From positions 1-18,019 of the forward strand of contig JAGGVJ010000036.1 in NCBI GenBank assembly GCA_021158055.1: DNA of 18,019 nt, in the 5' to 3' direction. The stretch comes from Candidatus Iainarchaeum sp. (GTDB taxonomy: Archaea; Iainarchaeota; Iainarchaeia; JAGGVJ01). The notes under the pieces are model-generated. The model saw only the letters and a program-made list of their open reading frames with translations. It was not told the DNA's origin and did no database searches. Of the stretch, positions 2,826 to 10,928 are shown piece by piece. The position numbers and the translations under genes are program-made. Within the stretch, counting starts at the first letter, position 1; every line of letters begins with the position of its first letter.

Positions 2826-2852
2826 TTAGTGTTAGTGTTATTATTATTATTA
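2826..2852 (-). repeat. (TAA)5-CAC-TAA-CAC-TAA microsatellite beginning at the stop codon of the HD gene
   Basis: The plus strand reads ttagtgttagtgttattattattatta, which gives seven in-frame TAA codons on the minus strand between convergent genes. Confidence 0.8.
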
Positions 2853-3413
2853 TTTAAAGACTTCTTTCACTAAAGCATCAAATATCCTATAGAGTCTTGT
2901 GCCTGATAATTTATTGGTCATTTCGTCTCTTATTGAAGTGTAATACCATTCAATCTCGTCTTTTGGTGCATTGAATTCACTCCATACGTCAGTGCCGTTG
3001 ATCAGGTCTTCTTTAATTGATGAAAGGTTGGCGTGTTTATCAGCTAAAAATATTAAAAGTTGTTCTTCAGTGCCGTTTTTTATGTTTTGAATGGAGTGGG
3101 TTTTTCGTTGTTTCCAGGAAGCTTTTTGTTCTGCATCACTTGCATCGGGTGTGTTTCCGGGTTCAGTGCAAAAACGCACTAACTCTAAAACATCGGGTCC
3201 AAAATCATTCAACAGGTCTGTTTCTGAATAAGCGGTGTCTTCAAGCGTGTCGTGAAGTATGCCTGCGACAATTACTGTTTCATTTTTTGTTTCATACATT
3301 AAGTATTTTGCAACATCCAGGATGTGCACAAAATAAGGGCAATCGGTTATTTTTCTGGCCTGGCCTTTATGTGCTTCATACGCAGTTGACAGTGCTTTTT
3401 CAATTATGTCCAT
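2850..3413 (-). CDS. Stand-alone RelA/SpoT-type HD hydrolase (small alarmone hydrolase / Mesh1-like)
   Basis: AHKGQARK..PYFVH, AGILHDTLEDT and LADKHANL match the (p)ppGpp hydrolase HD motifs. 187 aa with no synthetase domain. Confidence 0.88.
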   Translation of the reverse strand: MDIIEKALSTAYEAHKGQARKITDCPYFVHILDVAKYLMYETKNETVIVAGILHDTLEDTAYSETDLLNDFGPDVLELVRFCTEPGNTPDASDAEQKASWKQRKTHSIQNIKNGTEEQLLIFLADKHANLSSIKEDLINGTDVWSEFNAPKDEIEWYYTSIRDEMTNKLSGTRLYRIFDALVKEVFK

Positions 3414-3418
3414 ATTGC

Positions 3419-3541
3419 TTATTTGTGTTTTAAAATTAATAAATCTGCCCTATTTTTTGATAAGGAATCGAGATCATGCATTTTACGGGATTTAAGTTCT
3501 TGAAGCAGGTCTTTGCTGACTTGAATTGATGTTGCATTCAT
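3419..3541 (-). CDS. 40-aa ORF, antitoxin/ribbon-helix-helix-like N-terminus, possibly a truncated remnant
   Basis: Hand translation: MNATSIQVSKDLLQELKSRKMHDLDSLSKNRADLLILKHK*. The TSIQVSKDLLQELK strand-helix pattern resembles small archaeal antitoxins. It is below the ORF-track size cutoff. Confidence 0.45.
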   Translation of the reverse strand: MNATSIQVSKDLLQELKSRKMHDLDSLSKNRADLLILKHK

Positions 3542-3580
3542 GGCAAGTATGTAAGTTTTTATCGTGCGTAAATATTTCAG

Positions 3581-4207
3581 TTACATAAAATAAACTGTTT
3601 TTGATATTAATTTCCCTTCCAGCAGATTATTTTTTACTTCGTATTTGCGCCCGAATTTTTCAAGCTCTGTCAAGTCAAAGTTTACGGGTATTCTTAAGAT
3701 GACTTTTGAAAAATGCTTAAATGCAAGTTTCAGTATGTCTTGTCCGTTTGGCGAAAAATTTTCAAGCTTGAAACTTTGAAGAGCAGCGTAGTCCGGACCG
3801 CCCCAAGGCGGGTCTAAAAATATGGCTTCTGCAGATATTTTTGGCGCTTCTTTAAAAAAATCCCCGTGAATGAATTCAATTTTGTCCTGTACCTGATATA
3901 TTTCGGAATTGTTTTTCGCCATTTTCAGCCGGTTTTCATCAATTTCAATCAGATAAACTTTTTTGCAATATCTGGCAAATGCAATTGAATTGCCCCCAAC
4001 ACAGCCAAAAGCGTCAACAATCGTATCGCAGTTAATTAATTTTGCCTGTTTTAAAGCCACTTTTTCAGGGGTAACGGAAAATAACGCGGTTTTATCAATT
4101 TGGATTCCCTTGTCAAACTTTGAAAAATAAAGATATCGTTTATCTCAGTATCTCTGCAATTCTTTGCCGTATGGGCATTTATTTTTATCAGCGTTAGAAT
4201 TTGCCAT
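3581..4207 (-). CDS. Trimethylguanosine synthase (TGS1)-like RNA cap guanine-N2 methyltransferase, interrupted by an in-frame TGA at 4145-4147 (pseudogene or recoded)
   Basis: The frame of ORF 3581..4060 extends to an ATG at 4207: MANSNADKNKCPYGKELQRY*DKRYLYFSKFDKGIQIDKTALFSVTPEKVA. TGS1 motifs present: RY..FS.FD.GI..D, FSVTPEK.A, VDAFGCVGGN, GDF and FLDPPWGGPDY. Confidence 0.9.
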
Positions 4208-4298
4208 TTAATTTTCTTGTTTATTTTTGTATTGAATTTTGACTTGAAAAACTTTTTTGTGCCTGATAAAATTGCGCTCATTTTAACCTGTCCATCTT

Positions 4299-4889
4299 TC
4301 AATCTTTGATGGTTTCTTTTTTTCTCGACTCAAGTTCCTCGCGTGCCATCTTTTTAGCGGTTTTTGAATAAAAATAATCCGCGTGTTCAATTTTTGAGTT
4401 CAACTGGCCATAACGGGCTTCAGGCGAAATATTGCTTCTGGTCACGTCTGCTTTAAAACCGACACTGGAAAAGCACCATAATTTATCGGCATCCCGGACC
4501 AGGCCATCTTCTTTTGAAATGAACCCTTTCCTGGTGTCATGTTCTGAAATTATTTCCAGGATATCCCTGACTGAATCAATGGGGTAATGCACTTTATTCA
4601 GGATCTCTCCCGCAAGTTTTACGCCTTTTTCCTGGTGCTCGTATCTCACAGCCAGTATTTCTTCAGCTGTTGCGCCTTTTTTAAAGATGATAAATCTTTT
4701 TTCACGGGGCATCTGGCTCCAGCCGACATCATGCAGGATTATTGCTGGTATGATGATATTTTCATTTCCCTTTTCCACTTTCATTAATTTTTTTACGTAG
4801 CTGAGCAGAATTTCAATGTGCCCTTTATCATTGCGCTTATTCTGGTAGGGTAAAGCGAGATCAAAAATTTTTTCAAATATTTCTTTCAT
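4299..4889 (-). CDS. HD-domain metal-dependent phosphohydrolase
   Basis: H..(PAIIL)HD(VGW)..H..EHD..DADKL pattern of the HD superfamily. Confidence 0.85.
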   Translation of the reverse strand: MKEIFEKIFDLALPYQNKRNDKGHIEILLSYVKKLMKVEKGNENIIIPAIILHDVGWSQMPREKRFIIFKKGATAEEILAVRYEHQEKGVKLAGEILNKVHYPIDSVRDILEIISEHDTRKGFISKEDGLVRDADKLWCFSSVGFKADVTRSNISPEARYGQLNSKIEHADYFYSKTAKKMAREELESRKKETIKD

Positions 4890-5531: not shown

Positions 5532-5981
5532 ATGACTGAAAAAATCAAGGTTATCTGTGCTAATTTAATAGAAGATAACGGCAAAATACTTCTTGTAAGG
5601 GAAACAAAAGAAATAGCAAGAGACAAGTACAACTTTCCGGCCGGAAGGCTTGAGGGAAACGAAAGCATAGTTGAAGGGGCTGTCAGGGAAGCAAAAGAAG
5701 AAACAGGGCTGGACGTCAGACCCGTGCGAATCATCGGGATTTACCAGAAACCAGATTCAAAACAAGAAAATAATGTAACAATAATAGTCTTTAGATCAGA
5801 AATAGTGTCGGGAAAAATAACCGCGTCAGAAGAACACCCTGAAGTAAAGTTTTTTTCGCGCGATGAAATCAGCGGGTTAAACAAAAAAGGGTCGCTTAGA
5901 AGTTCGTATATAACCAAGGCAATGCAGGACTCTGACAACAAGCAGGCTGTCGACCTTTCTTTCCTAAAAATACTGGAGTGA
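5532..5981 (+). CDS. Nudix hydrolase
   Basis: Intact Nudix box GRLEGNESIVEGAVREAKEETGL. TTTTTATA box upstream at about 5502-5509. Confidence 0.92.
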   Translation: MTEKIKVICANLIEDNGKILLVRETKEIARDKYNFPAGRLEGNESIVEGAVREAKEETGLDVRPVRIIGIYQKPDSKQENNVTIIVFRSEIVSGKITASEEHPEVKFFSRDEISGLNKKGSLRSSYITKAMQDSDNKQAVDLSFLKILE

Positions 5982-6599: not shown

Positions 6600-7517
6600 T
6601 CATTTCAGGCATTCCAGCATGATTGCTTTTTGCATGTGGAGCCGGTTTTCTGCCTGGTCAAAAACAACGCTGTGCCTGCCGTCAATAATCTCGGCAGTCT
6701 GCTCAAAACCGCGCATTGCAGGAAGGCAGTTCATGAAGATGAAGTCCGGCTTTGCGCCCTTGACTATCTCGGAATTCACCTGGAACCCCAAAAACTTCTG
6801 CACACGCTTTTCCTTTTCGCTTTCCGGGATGTGATAGCTCATCCAGCTGTCGGCGTAAACAATGTCAGCGTCTTTGATTGCTTCTTTTGCGTCCTGGGTG
6901 ACTGTTATTTTTGCTTCTGAAACCTGTGCAATGGCATTTGCCTTGTCAACGATTTCCTGTTTCGGTGACAACTCGGACGGACAGCCCACAGAAACATCTA
7001 TTCCCATGTGAGCGCACCCGATGATCAGCGAGTGGGTCACGTTGTTGAACCCGTCTCCCAAAAAGCACAGCTTCAACTTGTCAAAGCGTCCTTTCTTTTC
7101 CTTGATTGTCAAAAGGTCAGACAGGATCTGCACGGGGTGAAAGTCGTTTGTCAGGCCGTTTATCACGGGAACCGACGCGTTTTGTGCCATTTCAACCAGG
7201 TCATTGTGTTCGAAAAGACGCGCCATGATTATGTCAACGTACCGCGAGCTCACTTTTGCGGTGTCTGCCACGGTTTCCTTGCTTTTGAAAGGGCTTGACT
7301 GGCTGTCTATCACAAGCGTGTTTCCGCCCATGGACTGCATTCCCACGTCAAAGGAAATTTTTGTCCGCAAAGACGGTTTTTCAAAAAGCATCATCAGTGT
7401 TTTTCCCGTCAACGCGCCCGAGTACACCTGCGGGTTTTTTTTGATGTCGCCTGCAAGCTCGACAAGATGCAGTATTTCTGTTTTGTCCAGATCAAACAAA
7501 GAGAGTATCGATTTCAT
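6600..7517 (-). CDS. argF: Ornithine carbamoyltransferase
   Basis: FEKPSLRT carbamoyl-phosphate loop, HPVQILSD, GDGFNNV, NCLPA and DQAENRLH. Co-oriented downstream of argG with a GGTGG SD. Confidence 0.93.
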   Translation of the reverse strand: MKSILSLFDLDKTEILHLVELAGDIKKNPQVYSGALTGKTLMMLFEKPSLRTKISFDVGMQSMGGNTLVIDSQSSPFKSKETVADTAKVSSRYVDIIMARLFEHNDLVEMAQNASVPVINGLTNDFHPVQILSDLLTIKEKKGRFDKLKLCFLGDGFNNVTHSLIIGCAHMGIDVSVGCPSELSPKQEIVDKANAIAQVSEAKITVTQDAKEAIKDADIVYADSWMSYHIPESEKEKRVQKFLGFQVNSEIVKGAKPDFIFMNCLPAMRGFEQTAEIIDGRHSVVFDQAENRLHMQKAIMLECLK

Positions 7518-7625
7518 TTCATGCCACCAACCAACTGTTTAAATAAAAGGTACTTGTTTGTAGTTAACAAAGTTTCCCTAATGTTTAGTTTTTGCCGATT
7601 ATTTATTTCTTTGCAATTCAAGTTT

Positions 7626-8843
7626 TCATTTCCTGAGTGTAAGGCGCAGTGCATTGAGTTTGATGAATCCTTTTGCATCTTTGGGGTCATAGTCGCCAAG
7701 ATCATCCATGCTTGCAAGGTCCCAGCTGTAAATATTGCTTTGGGATTCCCTGGCGGTCACGAACGCGTTTCCTTTGTAAAGGCTCATCGTCACTTTTCCG
7801 TCGACGTTTTCCTGGCTCTTGTTTACCGCAGCCATCAAAAAGTCCATTTCAGGGCTGAACCAAAACCCGTTGTAGATAAGTTCGGCGATTTTCGGCATGA
7901 GCATGTCTTTCAAGTGAGTCACTTCCCTGTCAAGCACGAGCCCTTCAAGGTCGCTGTGCGCTTTCCAGAGAATTGTTCCGGCAGGGGTCTCGTACACACC
8001 GCGCGATTTCATTCCCACGAAACGGTTTTCAACCAGGTCCATCCTTCCGATCCCGTTGGCTGAGCCAAGCTCGTTCAGATACTGGAAAAGCTCAAGACCG
8101 CCGGTTACGGTGTTTTCCAAGCCGCCGCCTTTGCTTAAGTCTGTGACTTTGACCGGAATCCCGCTTTTGAACTCGATCTCTATTTTTGTTTCAGTGTCAG
8201 GAGCGTTTTTCGGGGAAACAGTTTTTTTGAACATGCTTTCCTGCGCTTCAAACGCAGGGTCTTCAAGCTGCCCTGCCTCGTAGCTTATGTGCATTAAGTT
8301 GTCGTCCATGCTGTAAGGCTTTTCAAACGTTGATTCGATCGGGATTCCTTTTTCCTTTGCATAGTTTATGAGGTCGCTTCTTCCTTTGAACTTGTCAGTG
8401 AATTCGGAGTCTTTCCACGGGCTGATTATCTCAACTTCAGGCATCAGTTGCATGTAGACCATTTCAAACCTTACCTGGTCGTTTCCTTTTCCTGTCGCGC
8501 CGTGGGCGACGATGTTTGTCCCTTCAAGTTTTGCGATTTCAATCTGCTTTTTTGCAATCAGGGGTCTTGCAAAAGAAGTCCCGAGCAGGTATTTTCCTTC
8601 GTATACTGCGTTTGACTTTAACCCCTCGAAAATGTATTTTTCAACAAAATCTTTTTTCAGGTCCTCGACATAAACCTTGCATGCGCCGATTTCCAATGCC
8701 TTTGCCTTTGCTTTTTCAAAGTCGTCTTCCTGCCCGACATCGCCGATGAAGCAGATTACTTCGTATCCCTTGTCAATCAGCCATTTCAGAATCGCTGAAG
8801 TGTCAAGTCCTCCGCTGTAGGCCAGCACCACTTTTTCACCCAT
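7626..8843 (-). CDS. argG: Argininosuccinate synthase
   Basis: [24 protein letters not shown] and [25 protein letters not shown] at 8850-8856. Confidence 0.97.
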
Positions 8844-9749: not shown

Positions 9750-10928
9750 TTATGCAAGATCTATAGTCGGCATTTTATATTCTTCTATAAAATGGACTCC
9801 GATGATATTTGCAATCTCAGGTATTTTAGATGCATCAATCAGGGTTCTGATATTTGCGGTTGTCGTGGTCGTACCGCCAAGAGCGTTTATTTTATCAGCT
9901 ATATCTGTCTTGTCTTCACCGCTGAAAACCAAGACAGTTAAAAGTATATTTCCTGTCCTGTCCAGTGAATCTATCAGATCAGGCTGCATTTTGTACGCCG
10001 GCTGATATATTCCCACCCATTTGACGCTATCCAGGTTCTGGACATTATTCTTTGCAGTTTCACTCATCTTTACAATAAATGCATGTTCCGGGATATAGCC
10101 GTGCATTGTTCCGCCCAGAGAGATGATGTCGTTTTTGTCTTTGTCGTATACCGAGCCTTTGAACTGGACAATATAATACCCGTCGGCTTCAGGAGAATAA
10201 GAGGGAACGCAAAGATTTTTTGGTATGTGGATCCCAATGTGATCCGAATCAATTTCGGAAGAGGAAAATGCTGTAAGTGCCACTAACTTTATCGTTTTGG
10301 GAATTTTGATAATACAATTTTCGTTCGTTTTTTCTCCGTTTGCGTATGCTTTTGATTCTAAATTTGGTTCAGCGTGCTTTATTCTTTCGTCTTGTTTAAG
10401 TTTGCAGATCCATTCAAATTCCAGACCCTCAGGCACTTCTACGTGAACACAGTTGCAAAGGTCCCAATATTTTTTCACGTTCAAGTCGTATTCACTCATC
10501 ACATCTCTGATCTCTTTCTCTGGAAATTTTTCATCAAAACTTACGATTATGCTGCCGGGAAGATAGCTATAATTTTTTGACTTTAATTCATCAATGCATT
10601 GTTTGACATTCACTGCACTGCATTGGTTATTTATGCACGCAGAAGCTCAAATTTCAGTATTTAACGGACACGCTCTGCTGCAGGTACTGACTCGCTCTAA
10701 ATGCCGATGGTGTATGTTGACAGCTATATTCGGCGGTGAACAGCATTCTCCTCCGCTGATTAATATGCAATCGTCATTTCTTTCGCAATATTTTGAATCT
10801 TTATATTTTTCAGGTATCTGATTTGAAGAGGTATCGCTCCAAATCCAGGATCCTCCGATCAATATGATTACAATGACTAAAATTCCGGTCAGGATTTTTG
10901 TTTTTGAATTCATTTTGATCCTTCTCAT
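9750..10928 (-). CDS. Membrane-anchored Cys-rich protein with subtilase (S8) prodomain-like modules and no catalytic domain; single frame interrupted by TGA at 10647-10649
   Basis: ORFs 10647..10928 and 9750..10613 are in the same frame and joined by 11 sense codons (*ASACINNQCSA). N-terminal TM helix; C..NDDC..CC..C..C..CINNQC; YLPGSIIVSF..HAEPN and YYIVQFKG..GYIPEHAFIV..VKWVGIYQPAYK resemble S8 propeptides. Confidence 0.72.

Follow-up and report, generated by a model that had tools for sequence, protein, structure and literature searches.

An 18,019-nucleotide stretch of DNA from the archaeon Candidatus Iainarchaeum sp. (assembly GCA_021158055.1, contig JAGGVJ010000036.1; the whole stretch is called the window below) carries, on the minus strand at 3581–4207, a gene of the trimethylguanosine synthase (TGS) family, resembling RNA cap guanine-N2 methyltransferases. 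The gene is interrupted by an in-frame TGA at codon 21 (4145–4147), which replaces a tryptophan that is invariant among the aligned relatives. The most probable explanation, to which a probability of roughly 55% is given, is that a recently acquired gene has been freshly inactivated by a TGG to TGA change at Trp21.

The frame runs from ATG 4207 to a terminal TAA (3583–3581), comprises 208 codons with a single internal TGA, and translates as MANSNADKNKCPYGKELQRY*DKRYLYFSKFDKGIQIDKTALFSVTPEKVA...DAFGCVGGN...FLDPPWGGPDY...KTVYFM* (asterisks are stops). The codon directly 5' of the ATG is TAA, making 4207 the earliest possible start, and the internal TGA (4147–4145) is preceded by TAC (Tyr20). This reproduces the letters quoted in an earlier, sequence-only reading of the same DNA, which had also placed the stop at the W of a KYW motif and held that the open reading frame (ORF) track misses the N-terminal part of the gene. 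Both statements are borne out. The mechanical ORF list shows 3581–4060 alone (159 amino acids, with a GTG start at 4060) and omits what lies upstream, and the public protein P0002 is the same shortened product (100% identity over 76% of the query), an example of how ORF callers can hide interrupted genes by giving a shortened protein. The stop stands at the position of human Trp648, and the corresponding W21 is invariant in alignment A1 (27 rows including the window), with Trp in 26/26 relatives. The larger, 154-row alignment made for the tree has W here in 107/109 prokaryotic rows (with the window taken as read through) and in 36/38 eukaryote-type rows. Trp is present in every full-length member of the prokaryotic subfamily that was examined, and TGA is found in the window gene alone.

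Translated through the stop, the protein is, as judged from its sequence, a true member of the TGS family, showing every feature looked for except an uninterrupted frame, which is broken at codon 21 by what is an ordinary stop in this genome. Pfam Methyltransf_15 (PF09445) scores 104.9 bits on residues 61–191 (gathering score 22, E = 4.3e-30); these residues form the predicted Rossmann-fold methyltransferase core (3635–4027, minus strand; profile positions 2–139 of 165). The best match among solved structures is the active human TGS1 fragment 3GDH (chain 3gdh_A; E = 4.7e-47, query residues 15–207), and as this alignment extends upstream of the Pfam domain it takes in the N-terminal extension (NTE) of the human enzyme. 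Neither match could plausibly arise by chance. An uninterrupted protein of the same length, 208 amino acids, is P0001, with 79% identity. RsmD-type and Trm5-type Pfam models reach about 30 bits, the RsmD/RsmC-type model Cons_hypoth95 giving a weak 32.1, while the NCBIfam RsmD equivalog TIGR00095 scores 24.6 bits against a cut-off of 117.5; no NCBIfam model is passed by the read-through protein. The earlier assignment to TGS, rather than to generic RsmD- or Trm-type methyltransferases, is thus upheld by the hidden Markov model search.

The NTE of the window protein (residues 7–44, 4076–4189, minus strand) corresponds to human Leu634–Ser671 and includes R19-Y20-[W21] and F43-S44. According to the available text of Monecke et al. 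2009 (PMC2709555), this human segment completes the pocket for 7-methylguanosine (m7G), with Lys646, Tyr647, Glu667, Phe670, Ser671, Val672 and Thr673 involved in binding the m7G cap and Trp648 lying in the hydrophobic core of the extension; the extension is needed for activity, the human fragment 653–853 being inactive. Window residues R19, Y20, F43, S44 and T46 align with human K646, Y647, F670, S671 and T673, and the remaining cap-pocket positions are T40 (human Glu667) and V45 (human Val672). At the level of the coding sequence the extension is therefore present in full, except that the codon for Trp648 is TGA. Further downstream on the same strand, D65, P133, W135, Y140 and P174 match human D696, P764, W766, Y771 and P806. 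The putative S-adenosylmethionine (AdoMet) binding motif V64-DAFGCVGG-N73 (3989–4018; D65 = human Asp696) has G71 invariant and D65, F67 and G72 nearly so in A1, and the D65 column holds D in 106/109 prokaryotic and 38/38 eukaryote-type rows of the tree alignment. The acceptor motif D132-P-P-W135 (3803–3814; human S763-P-P-W766) retains the stacking Trp of (S/D)PPW, found in 154/154 tree rows, and W135 is predicted to stack on m7G; Y140 (human Tyr771) is encoded at 3788–3790. For the human enzyme, the same source describes Trp766 as stacking on m7G, with activity below 1% in W766A and of 97% in S763D (PMC2709555).

In the host genome TGA is an ordinary stop codon, and because it is used as such the gene is interrupted rather than recoded. 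The window is one whole contig (C2) of a 1.15-Mb assembly of 45 contigs (94.9% complete, 0.05% contaminated). The small-subunit (SSU) rRNA scores 1439.9 bits with the archaeal model vs 1089 with the bacterial model, in line with the archaeal host proposed earlier; the genomes of relatives measure 0.4–1.5 Mb and are DPANN-like, and the window DNA is present in hydrothermal-vent metagenome runs. Open segments of at least 200 codons are closed by TGA 350 times, by TAA 333 times and by TAG 99 times. A greedy set of 1061 genes (1.046 Mb) ends at TGA in 459 cases, TAA in 458, TAG in 120 and at a contig end in 24, TGA thus terminating 459 of the 1037 genes that end in a stop codon and being the joint commonest stop. 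ArgG in the window itself ends at a TGA, and two same-class relatives, 64–65% identical, align to residue 403 of 405, so that it stops where they end. Same-frame neighbours split by one stop are separated by TGA, TAA and TAG in 212, 214 and 78 cases, proportions like those of the long segments and showing no excess of open frames behind TGA. Among 250 genes with an open same-frame upstream segment of at least 15 codons (TAA 144, TGA 81, TAG 25), a Pfam domain crosses the TGA junction in 0/81 cases.

These counts contradict a decoding of TGA by rule, whether as Trp in a code 4-like scheme or as selenocysteine, and although the frame is open under code 4 such decoding is extremely improbable. 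For selenocysteine, the best tRNA-Sec match reaches 32.2 bits vs the Rfam cut-off of 47, and the position is that of an invariant, buried Trp. No stable structure follows the TGA on its 3' side, where the RNA folds no better than shuffled sequence (z = +1.24). The Rfam tRNA model gives 32 matches, many with introns of 15–35 nt, and none of the 31 that could be assigned an anticodon has UCA. The tRNA set is clearly incomplete, many tRNAs being missing despite the 94.9% completeness rating. ARAGORN finds 21–22 tRNAs at default thresholds and makes hundreds of implausible calls at relaxed ones; the ‘tca’ and three ‘cca’ candidates among the latter (7 loci) are not called tRNAs by Rfam, and the single ‘tta’ call proves to be a class II tRNA with an intron.

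An isolated assembly error is an unlikely cause of the TGA because contigs from two metagenomic runs show identical letters at this codon. Logan contigs of both runs (X1 and X2; two samples, one study) carry the gene region, X1 covering all 1601 bases and X2 covering 3629–4767 in one contig of 1139 bases, at word depths of 17.5 and 11.2. There are 0 differences over 3629–4767, and the sole variant listed in the 1.6 kb is at 4768. X1 is possibly the source of the window itself, and contigs drop rare variants, so that a minor TGG allele could be hidden. The stop might still be unrepresentative, having arisen in sequencing or assembly or belonging to one strain of a population that mainly has TGG; this would fit with a metagenome-assembled genome, with the loss of minor alleles from contigs and with the origin of both runs in one study, but it is improbable given that two separately assembled runs agree throughout. 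A metagenome scan with a single protein gave 122 pattern matches, none of which was confirmed.

Under the favoured explanation, an ancestor of this small-genome (DPANN-like) vent archaeon would have gained a TGS gene of the prokaryotic branch by horizontal transfer, and in the sampled population one TGG-to-TGA change at the invariant Trp21 would have disabled it. With the TGA read as a stop, and read-through presumed not to occur, a 20-residue peptide would be released. The sole in-frame restart, the GTG for Val50 (4058–4060, minus strand), which is the first in-frame start codon 3' of the TGA and opens the 159-residue ORF, would yield a protein without the whole extension. The points counted for inactivation are that TGA is a normal stop here, that no recoding apparatus was found, that the gene stands alone in its phylum, that no substrate is evident, and that TGG to TGA is a one-step transition.

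The Val50-start product should be inactive because human TGS1 653–853 and Giardia Tgs2 31–258 are inactive in the available descriptions (PMC2709555, PMC1865056), and both of these lack less than it does. A start at Val50 removes the pocket residues F43, S44 and T46, and the GTG has no purine-rich ribosome-binding stretch in front of it. It is consequently a distinctly improbable proposal that the real product is this 159-residue protein, a bare core without the extension and acting on some other substrate. Gene callers do predict it (the ORF list, P0002), and prokaryotic PF09445 proteins of about 200 amino acids without an NTE do exist, as in the outgroup rows of the tree, but all relatives share conserved protein sequence with the stretch 5' of GTG 4060, which was therefore coding until very recently.

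Several observations weigh against inactivation. The loss, if there was one, must be very recent because the frame is flawless apart from one codon: the remainder of the 208 codons has no other stop or frameshift, and all columns invariant in A1 are kept. In the contigs of both samples TGA is the sole form seen, with no other listed, although contigs drop rare variants. Of the three stops UGA leaks most, with tRNA-Trp usually acting as its near-cognate reader, and read-through would restore the wild-type residue. The Pfam crossing test is blind to interruptions outside domains and misses the TGS gene itself, in which PF09445 begins at residue 61. No tRNA-Trp is found among the Rfam tRNA matches. 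A second gene in the window (9750–10928) may also run through a TGA, though BLASTP gives no homology across the junction.

Much of this is shared by the main rival explanation, a functional gene in which the UGA at codon 21 is read by a near-cognate tRNA-Trp, being either tolerated or exploited to hold enzyme production low, so that some full-length wild-type enzyme would be made. Its attractions are that one codon in 208 is damaged and the native residue would be put back, that TGA is the form in two samples, and that the possible second TGA-interrupted gene lies 5.5 kb away, with a G after its TGA as well. In some organisms, according to the available part of PMC13092985, tRNA-Trp(CCA) variants with 4-bp anticodon stems read UGA, which is also counted in its favour. 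Against it stand the stop usage of the genome (212/214/78 pairs vs 350/333/99 segments for TGA/TAA/TAG), the 0/81 domain crossings, and the failure to find a stimulatory hairpin or a tRNA with a UCA anticodon. With no m7G-forming enzyme evident, a need for the product is not apparent either. Read-through is accordingly regarded as unlikely.

The second candidate occupies 9750–10928 on the minus strand, with its TGA at 10644–10646 followed by G. Here 93 upstream codons (a membrane anchor and a Cys-rich stretch) are in frame with a 287-residue ORF that has a Fervidolysin-prodomain-like region. Its homologues P0231, P0218 and P0233 have an N-terminal anchor, and the upstream Cys-rich stretch and anchor resemble theirs. 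MAFFT aligns across the stop, in continuity with P0231, while BLASTP covers residues 201–389 only, and continuity is not established. Elsewhere in the genome (G000) four paralogous DUF2341 genes and one similar gene with no Pfam match (L113) have in common a leader (…FLVCLFNYFICVLL.RF.GFF.) that is conserved, in frame with a TGA following it, and located just ahead of the signal-peptide region. The five loci are L148:4910–5371, L120:1–468, L101:1278–1769, L158:14109–14681 and L113:5608–6081, on contigs C31, C18, C8, C36 and C15, respectively. The leader could be conserved upstream DNA or something that is translated.

The family is not unique to this genome. A word-indexed search yields 66 relatives, and an exhaustive search of 1.84 billion representatives yields 5252 at E ≤ 1e-3, of which 550 reach E ≤ 1e-30; the best matches are proteins of about 200–220 amino acids, and after them come long proteins (about 300–1400) that carry the domain C-terminally. 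When each prokaryotic species is represented by one genome, scanning gives 75 confirmed loci, each in a different species-representative genome. They include metagenome-assembled genomes (MAGs) of Flavobacteriaceae, Saccharibacteria, Paceibacterota, Nomurabacteria, Doudnabacteria, Woesearchaeota, Bdellovibrionota, Planctomycetes and Verrucomicrobiota, and isolates of Legionella (4 species), Methylocystis (several), Nocardia, Sinosporangium and Actinoallomurus. Viral relatives amount to 111 stretches, mostly from giant-virus MAGs, with at most 37% identity for partial matches and 30% for the best near-full one.

A tree was built from 154 distinct rows. Besides the window, it takes in the complete set of 59 short proteins, the 57 locus translations that cover the full domain, and 34 of 132 long proteins, sampled at every fourth position in order of score, together with the named fungal ones; 7 NTE-less PF09445 proteins serve as outgroup. 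It is a quick IQ-TREE run, and its support values are from the Shimodaira–Hasegawa-like approximate likelihood-ratio test (SH-aLRT) only. The 147 NTE-bearing rows are split from the 7 NTE-less rows by a branch with support of 99, and the window falls with the TGS rows and not with those of RsmD type, as the sequence-only reading would have it. The epithet ‘eukaryote-type’ given there to the gene is not sustained. The eukaryote-type clade (38 rows, support 97) comprises long proteins and three named fungal proteins, and the window lies outside it; the label ‘eukaryotic’ for this clade rests on those three rows and on architecture, and Pfam finds in 12 of its proteins PF09445 and generic methyltransferase models only, plus one weak WW match. 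The other 109 rows are prokaryotic and form three groups whose mutual order is not settled by the tree. The window pairs with P0001 (79% identity, support 96) in a group that includes Saccharibacteria, Nomurabacteria, Paceibacterota and Patescibacteria rows, its nearest named rows being those of Patescibacteria, and the other archaeal rows (L024, L029) are placed elsewhere.

Three alignment columns, numbered after human TGS1, distinguish the branches. At Ser763 the prokaryotic rows have Asp (101/109), the eukaryote-type rows Ser (38/38) and the outgroup Asp (7/7); at Trp669 the states are Leu (108/109), Trp (37/38) and Leu (5/7); and at Phe804 they are Arg or Lys (65/109), Phe or Tyr (36/38) and Lys (7/7). 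The window, with D132, L42 and R172, has the prokaryotic state at all three, where the eukaryote-type clade has S, W and F or Y, and so it shows neither the placement nor the signature of eukaryotic TGS1. By descent, as far as placement and signature tell, the gene belongs to the prokaryotic TGS branch and is not eukaryote-type. Because the prokaryotic column states are those of the outgroup, they speak against the idea that crown eukaryotes recently gave rise to the prokaryotic genes.

Some members of the wider family depart from this pattern. L074 (a Planctomycetaceae MAG), P0189 and P0045 are short (about 220 amino acids) but sit inside the eukaryote-type clade and have Ser at Ser763, which suggests eukaryote-to-bacterium transfer or bin contamination. 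In L084 (5622–6281), from a MAG labelled as a Methanobacteriota archaeon, a TGS-like gene with the eukaryote-type SPPW motif lies in two same-frame pieces (profile positions 10–93 and 93–190); either the gene is broken or a eukaryotic contig, wrongly binned, has an intron at this point. L078–L082, L086 and L087, from MAGs labelled as proteobacterium, Pseudomonadota, Enterobacterales or Myxococcota, have frames of about 480–610 codons in which the TGS-like domain is fused to another region on its N-terminal side. The domain in these begins at profile position 22 and hence has no K-Y-W.

Comparison with described enzymes shows how much of a known architecture is retained. The catalytic domain of human TGS1 (618–853; PDB 3GDH, 3EGI) has, like the window protein as predicted from the alignment, a helical N-terminal extension (K/R-Y-W, F-S-V-T-P-E) and a Rossmann core, and the two share the AdoMet Asp, the stacking Trp of xPPW and the equivalents of Tyr771 and Pro806. 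The human domain is the C-terminal part of an 853-residue protein, whereas the window protein would stand alone with 208 residues. At human positions Ser763, Trp669, Phe804 and Arg807 the window protein carries Asp, Leu, Arg and Val, respectively. The window host has no known m7G caps, and its gene is interrupted and falls outside the eukaryote-type clade. Tgs2 of Giardia lamblia (258 amino acids) is likewise small and stand-alone. As described in the available text of PMC1865056, it has DPPWGG with Asp140 and Trp143 essential, requires its N-terminal segment, uses no RNA or protein cofactors, and adds one methyl group only, giving m2,7G. Unlike the window gene it is eukaryotic, and the likeness is drawn from the published description, not from a sequence alignment.

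The window's own group, the prokaryotic TGS-like subfamily, consists of proteins of about 200–230 amino acids that are 40–79% identical to the window protein. They have the same CP[FY]G...KYW...FS.TPE extension and the same DPPW/Leu/basic signature, with Trp where the window has TGA; examples are P0008 (annotated as ‘RsmD family RNA methyltransferase’, in a Patescibacteria MAG) and entries named ‘trimethylguanosine synthase’ by JGI. NCBIfam offers no model whose cut-off these proteins reach. The RsmD/RsmC-type rRNA m2G methyltransferases (Cons_hypoth95; TIGR00095) have the same fold and guanine-N2 chemistry without the N-terminal extension, and it is from the TGS-like group that the NTE-less PF09445 proteins, such as P0056 (named RsmD by JGI), are split in the tree. 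Giant-virus Tgs homologues on IMG/VR MAG contigs have a PF09445-type domain but are far more distant, none being close to the window gene. Mimivirus is among the viruses with a Tgs homologue.

The gene appears to be a solitary acquisition. Among 40 genomes of same-class relatives there is no orthologue, the best match (E = 2.3e-19) covering residues 39–134 only and lying in a 351-residue frame. At E ≤ 1e-25, 1 of 215 genomes of the phylum matches, and this is the window genome itself, the other 214 giving none. Together with the tree, this makes it most likely that the gene was acquired horizontally from Patescibacteria-like bacteria, the direction of transfer being inferred. The rest of the contig fits the lineage, as shown by the 64–65% identity of ArgG in two same-class genomes. 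In the region 2850–4207, the TGS-like gene has a GC content of 0.359, the 9th percentile of 1061 genes, and the adjacent HD_4 (RelA/SpoT-hydrolase-like) gene has 0.379, the 15th percentile, which is suggestive of acquisition but not decisive. The arginine genes at 6600–8843 are at the 92nd–95th percentile.

Pfam shows the TGS-like gene flanked by HD_4 and HD genes, with cupin and NUDIX genes close by. A survey of neighbourhoods (125 ORFs) covered 33 of 35 loci chosen from the 75, the other two having no ORF call, and found no conserved operon across these 33 related loci. NUDIX, cupin, Dus and NTP_transf_2 genes recur at 2/33 loci each and HD at 0/33. A NUDIX hydrolase gene is directly upstream of the TGS-like gene in Legionella santicrucis (L072:5603–6001) and two genes upstream in a Doudnabacteria MAG (L031:5091–5564); in the window (5532–5981) it is three genes away and on the other strand. 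The NUDIX neighbours at 2/33 related loci are a weak lead towards nucleotide or 5'-end metabolism.

The chemistry of the intact enzyme can be outlined by reference to the human structure. AdoMet would be bound in the Rossmann core (D65, E88), and a 7-methylguanine nucleotide would be held in a pocket closed by the N-terminal extension. There, the positively charged m7G would be stacked on W135 of DPPW and bounded by S44, with phosphate contacts from R19/Y20 and Y140, and the exocyclic N2 would receive a methyl group, yielding m2,7G. Whether a further methylation to m2,2,7G would follow is more doubtful, since the window protein has Arg in place of the hydrophobic Phe804.

No source of m7G is evident in the archaeon, which bears out the caution of the earlier reading over the substrate. 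Profile searches of the genome find no mRNA capping enzyme, and a cap N7-methylase scores below cut-off (19.3 vs 26.6); a TrmB-type match is marginal and partial (23.8 bits, profile positions 2–61). In the available accounts of S. pombe Tgs1, Giardia Tgs2 and human TGS1 (PMC2709555, PMC1865056), prior N7 methylation is required for N2 methylation, and Giardia Tgs2 needs only AdoMet and m7GDP, m7GTP or m7GpppA (PMC1865056). Because the characterised enzymes need only these components, the bacterial carriers might use theirs on a free nucleotide or on a 5' end of non-canonical type.

TGS enzymes are textbook enzymes of eukaryotes and giant viruses. The available text of a 2008 paper (PMC2588526) states that the family appears exclusive to eukaryotes; JGI already names prokaryotic members ‘trimethylguanosine synthase’, while the literature searches made here found no published study of prokaryotic TGS-like proteins. 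The locus thus adds one more member, in all probability no longer functional, to a family already known. It catches gene flux in a reduced genome at one moment, with a lone acquisition in its phylum and a single nonsense change. The prokaryotic branch to which it belongs is compact, 40–50% identical to human TGS1 and equipped with a complete cap-binding extension. Its occurrence is patchy but extends to many bacterial phyla and also to a few archaea, and cultivable, harmless genera such as Methylocystis are among the carriers. The branch makes the question of which m7G substrate prokaryotes hypermethylate directly testable. A bolder proposal, quite unlikely as a whole, is that the prokaryotic TGS-like subfamily may N2-methylate an m7G-bearing 5' end or nucleotide (a dinucleoside-polyphosphate cap, or free m7GDP or m7GTP) because the whole m7G-nucleotide pocket is kept, that its ancestral-looking signature, common to the NTE-less outgroup, would make it the stock of eukaryotic TGS1, and that in this archaeon the enzyme might be made by low-level UGA-to-Trp read-through. 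If true, a hypermethylated cap-like structure would for the first time be documented beyond eukaryotes and the viruses that infect them.

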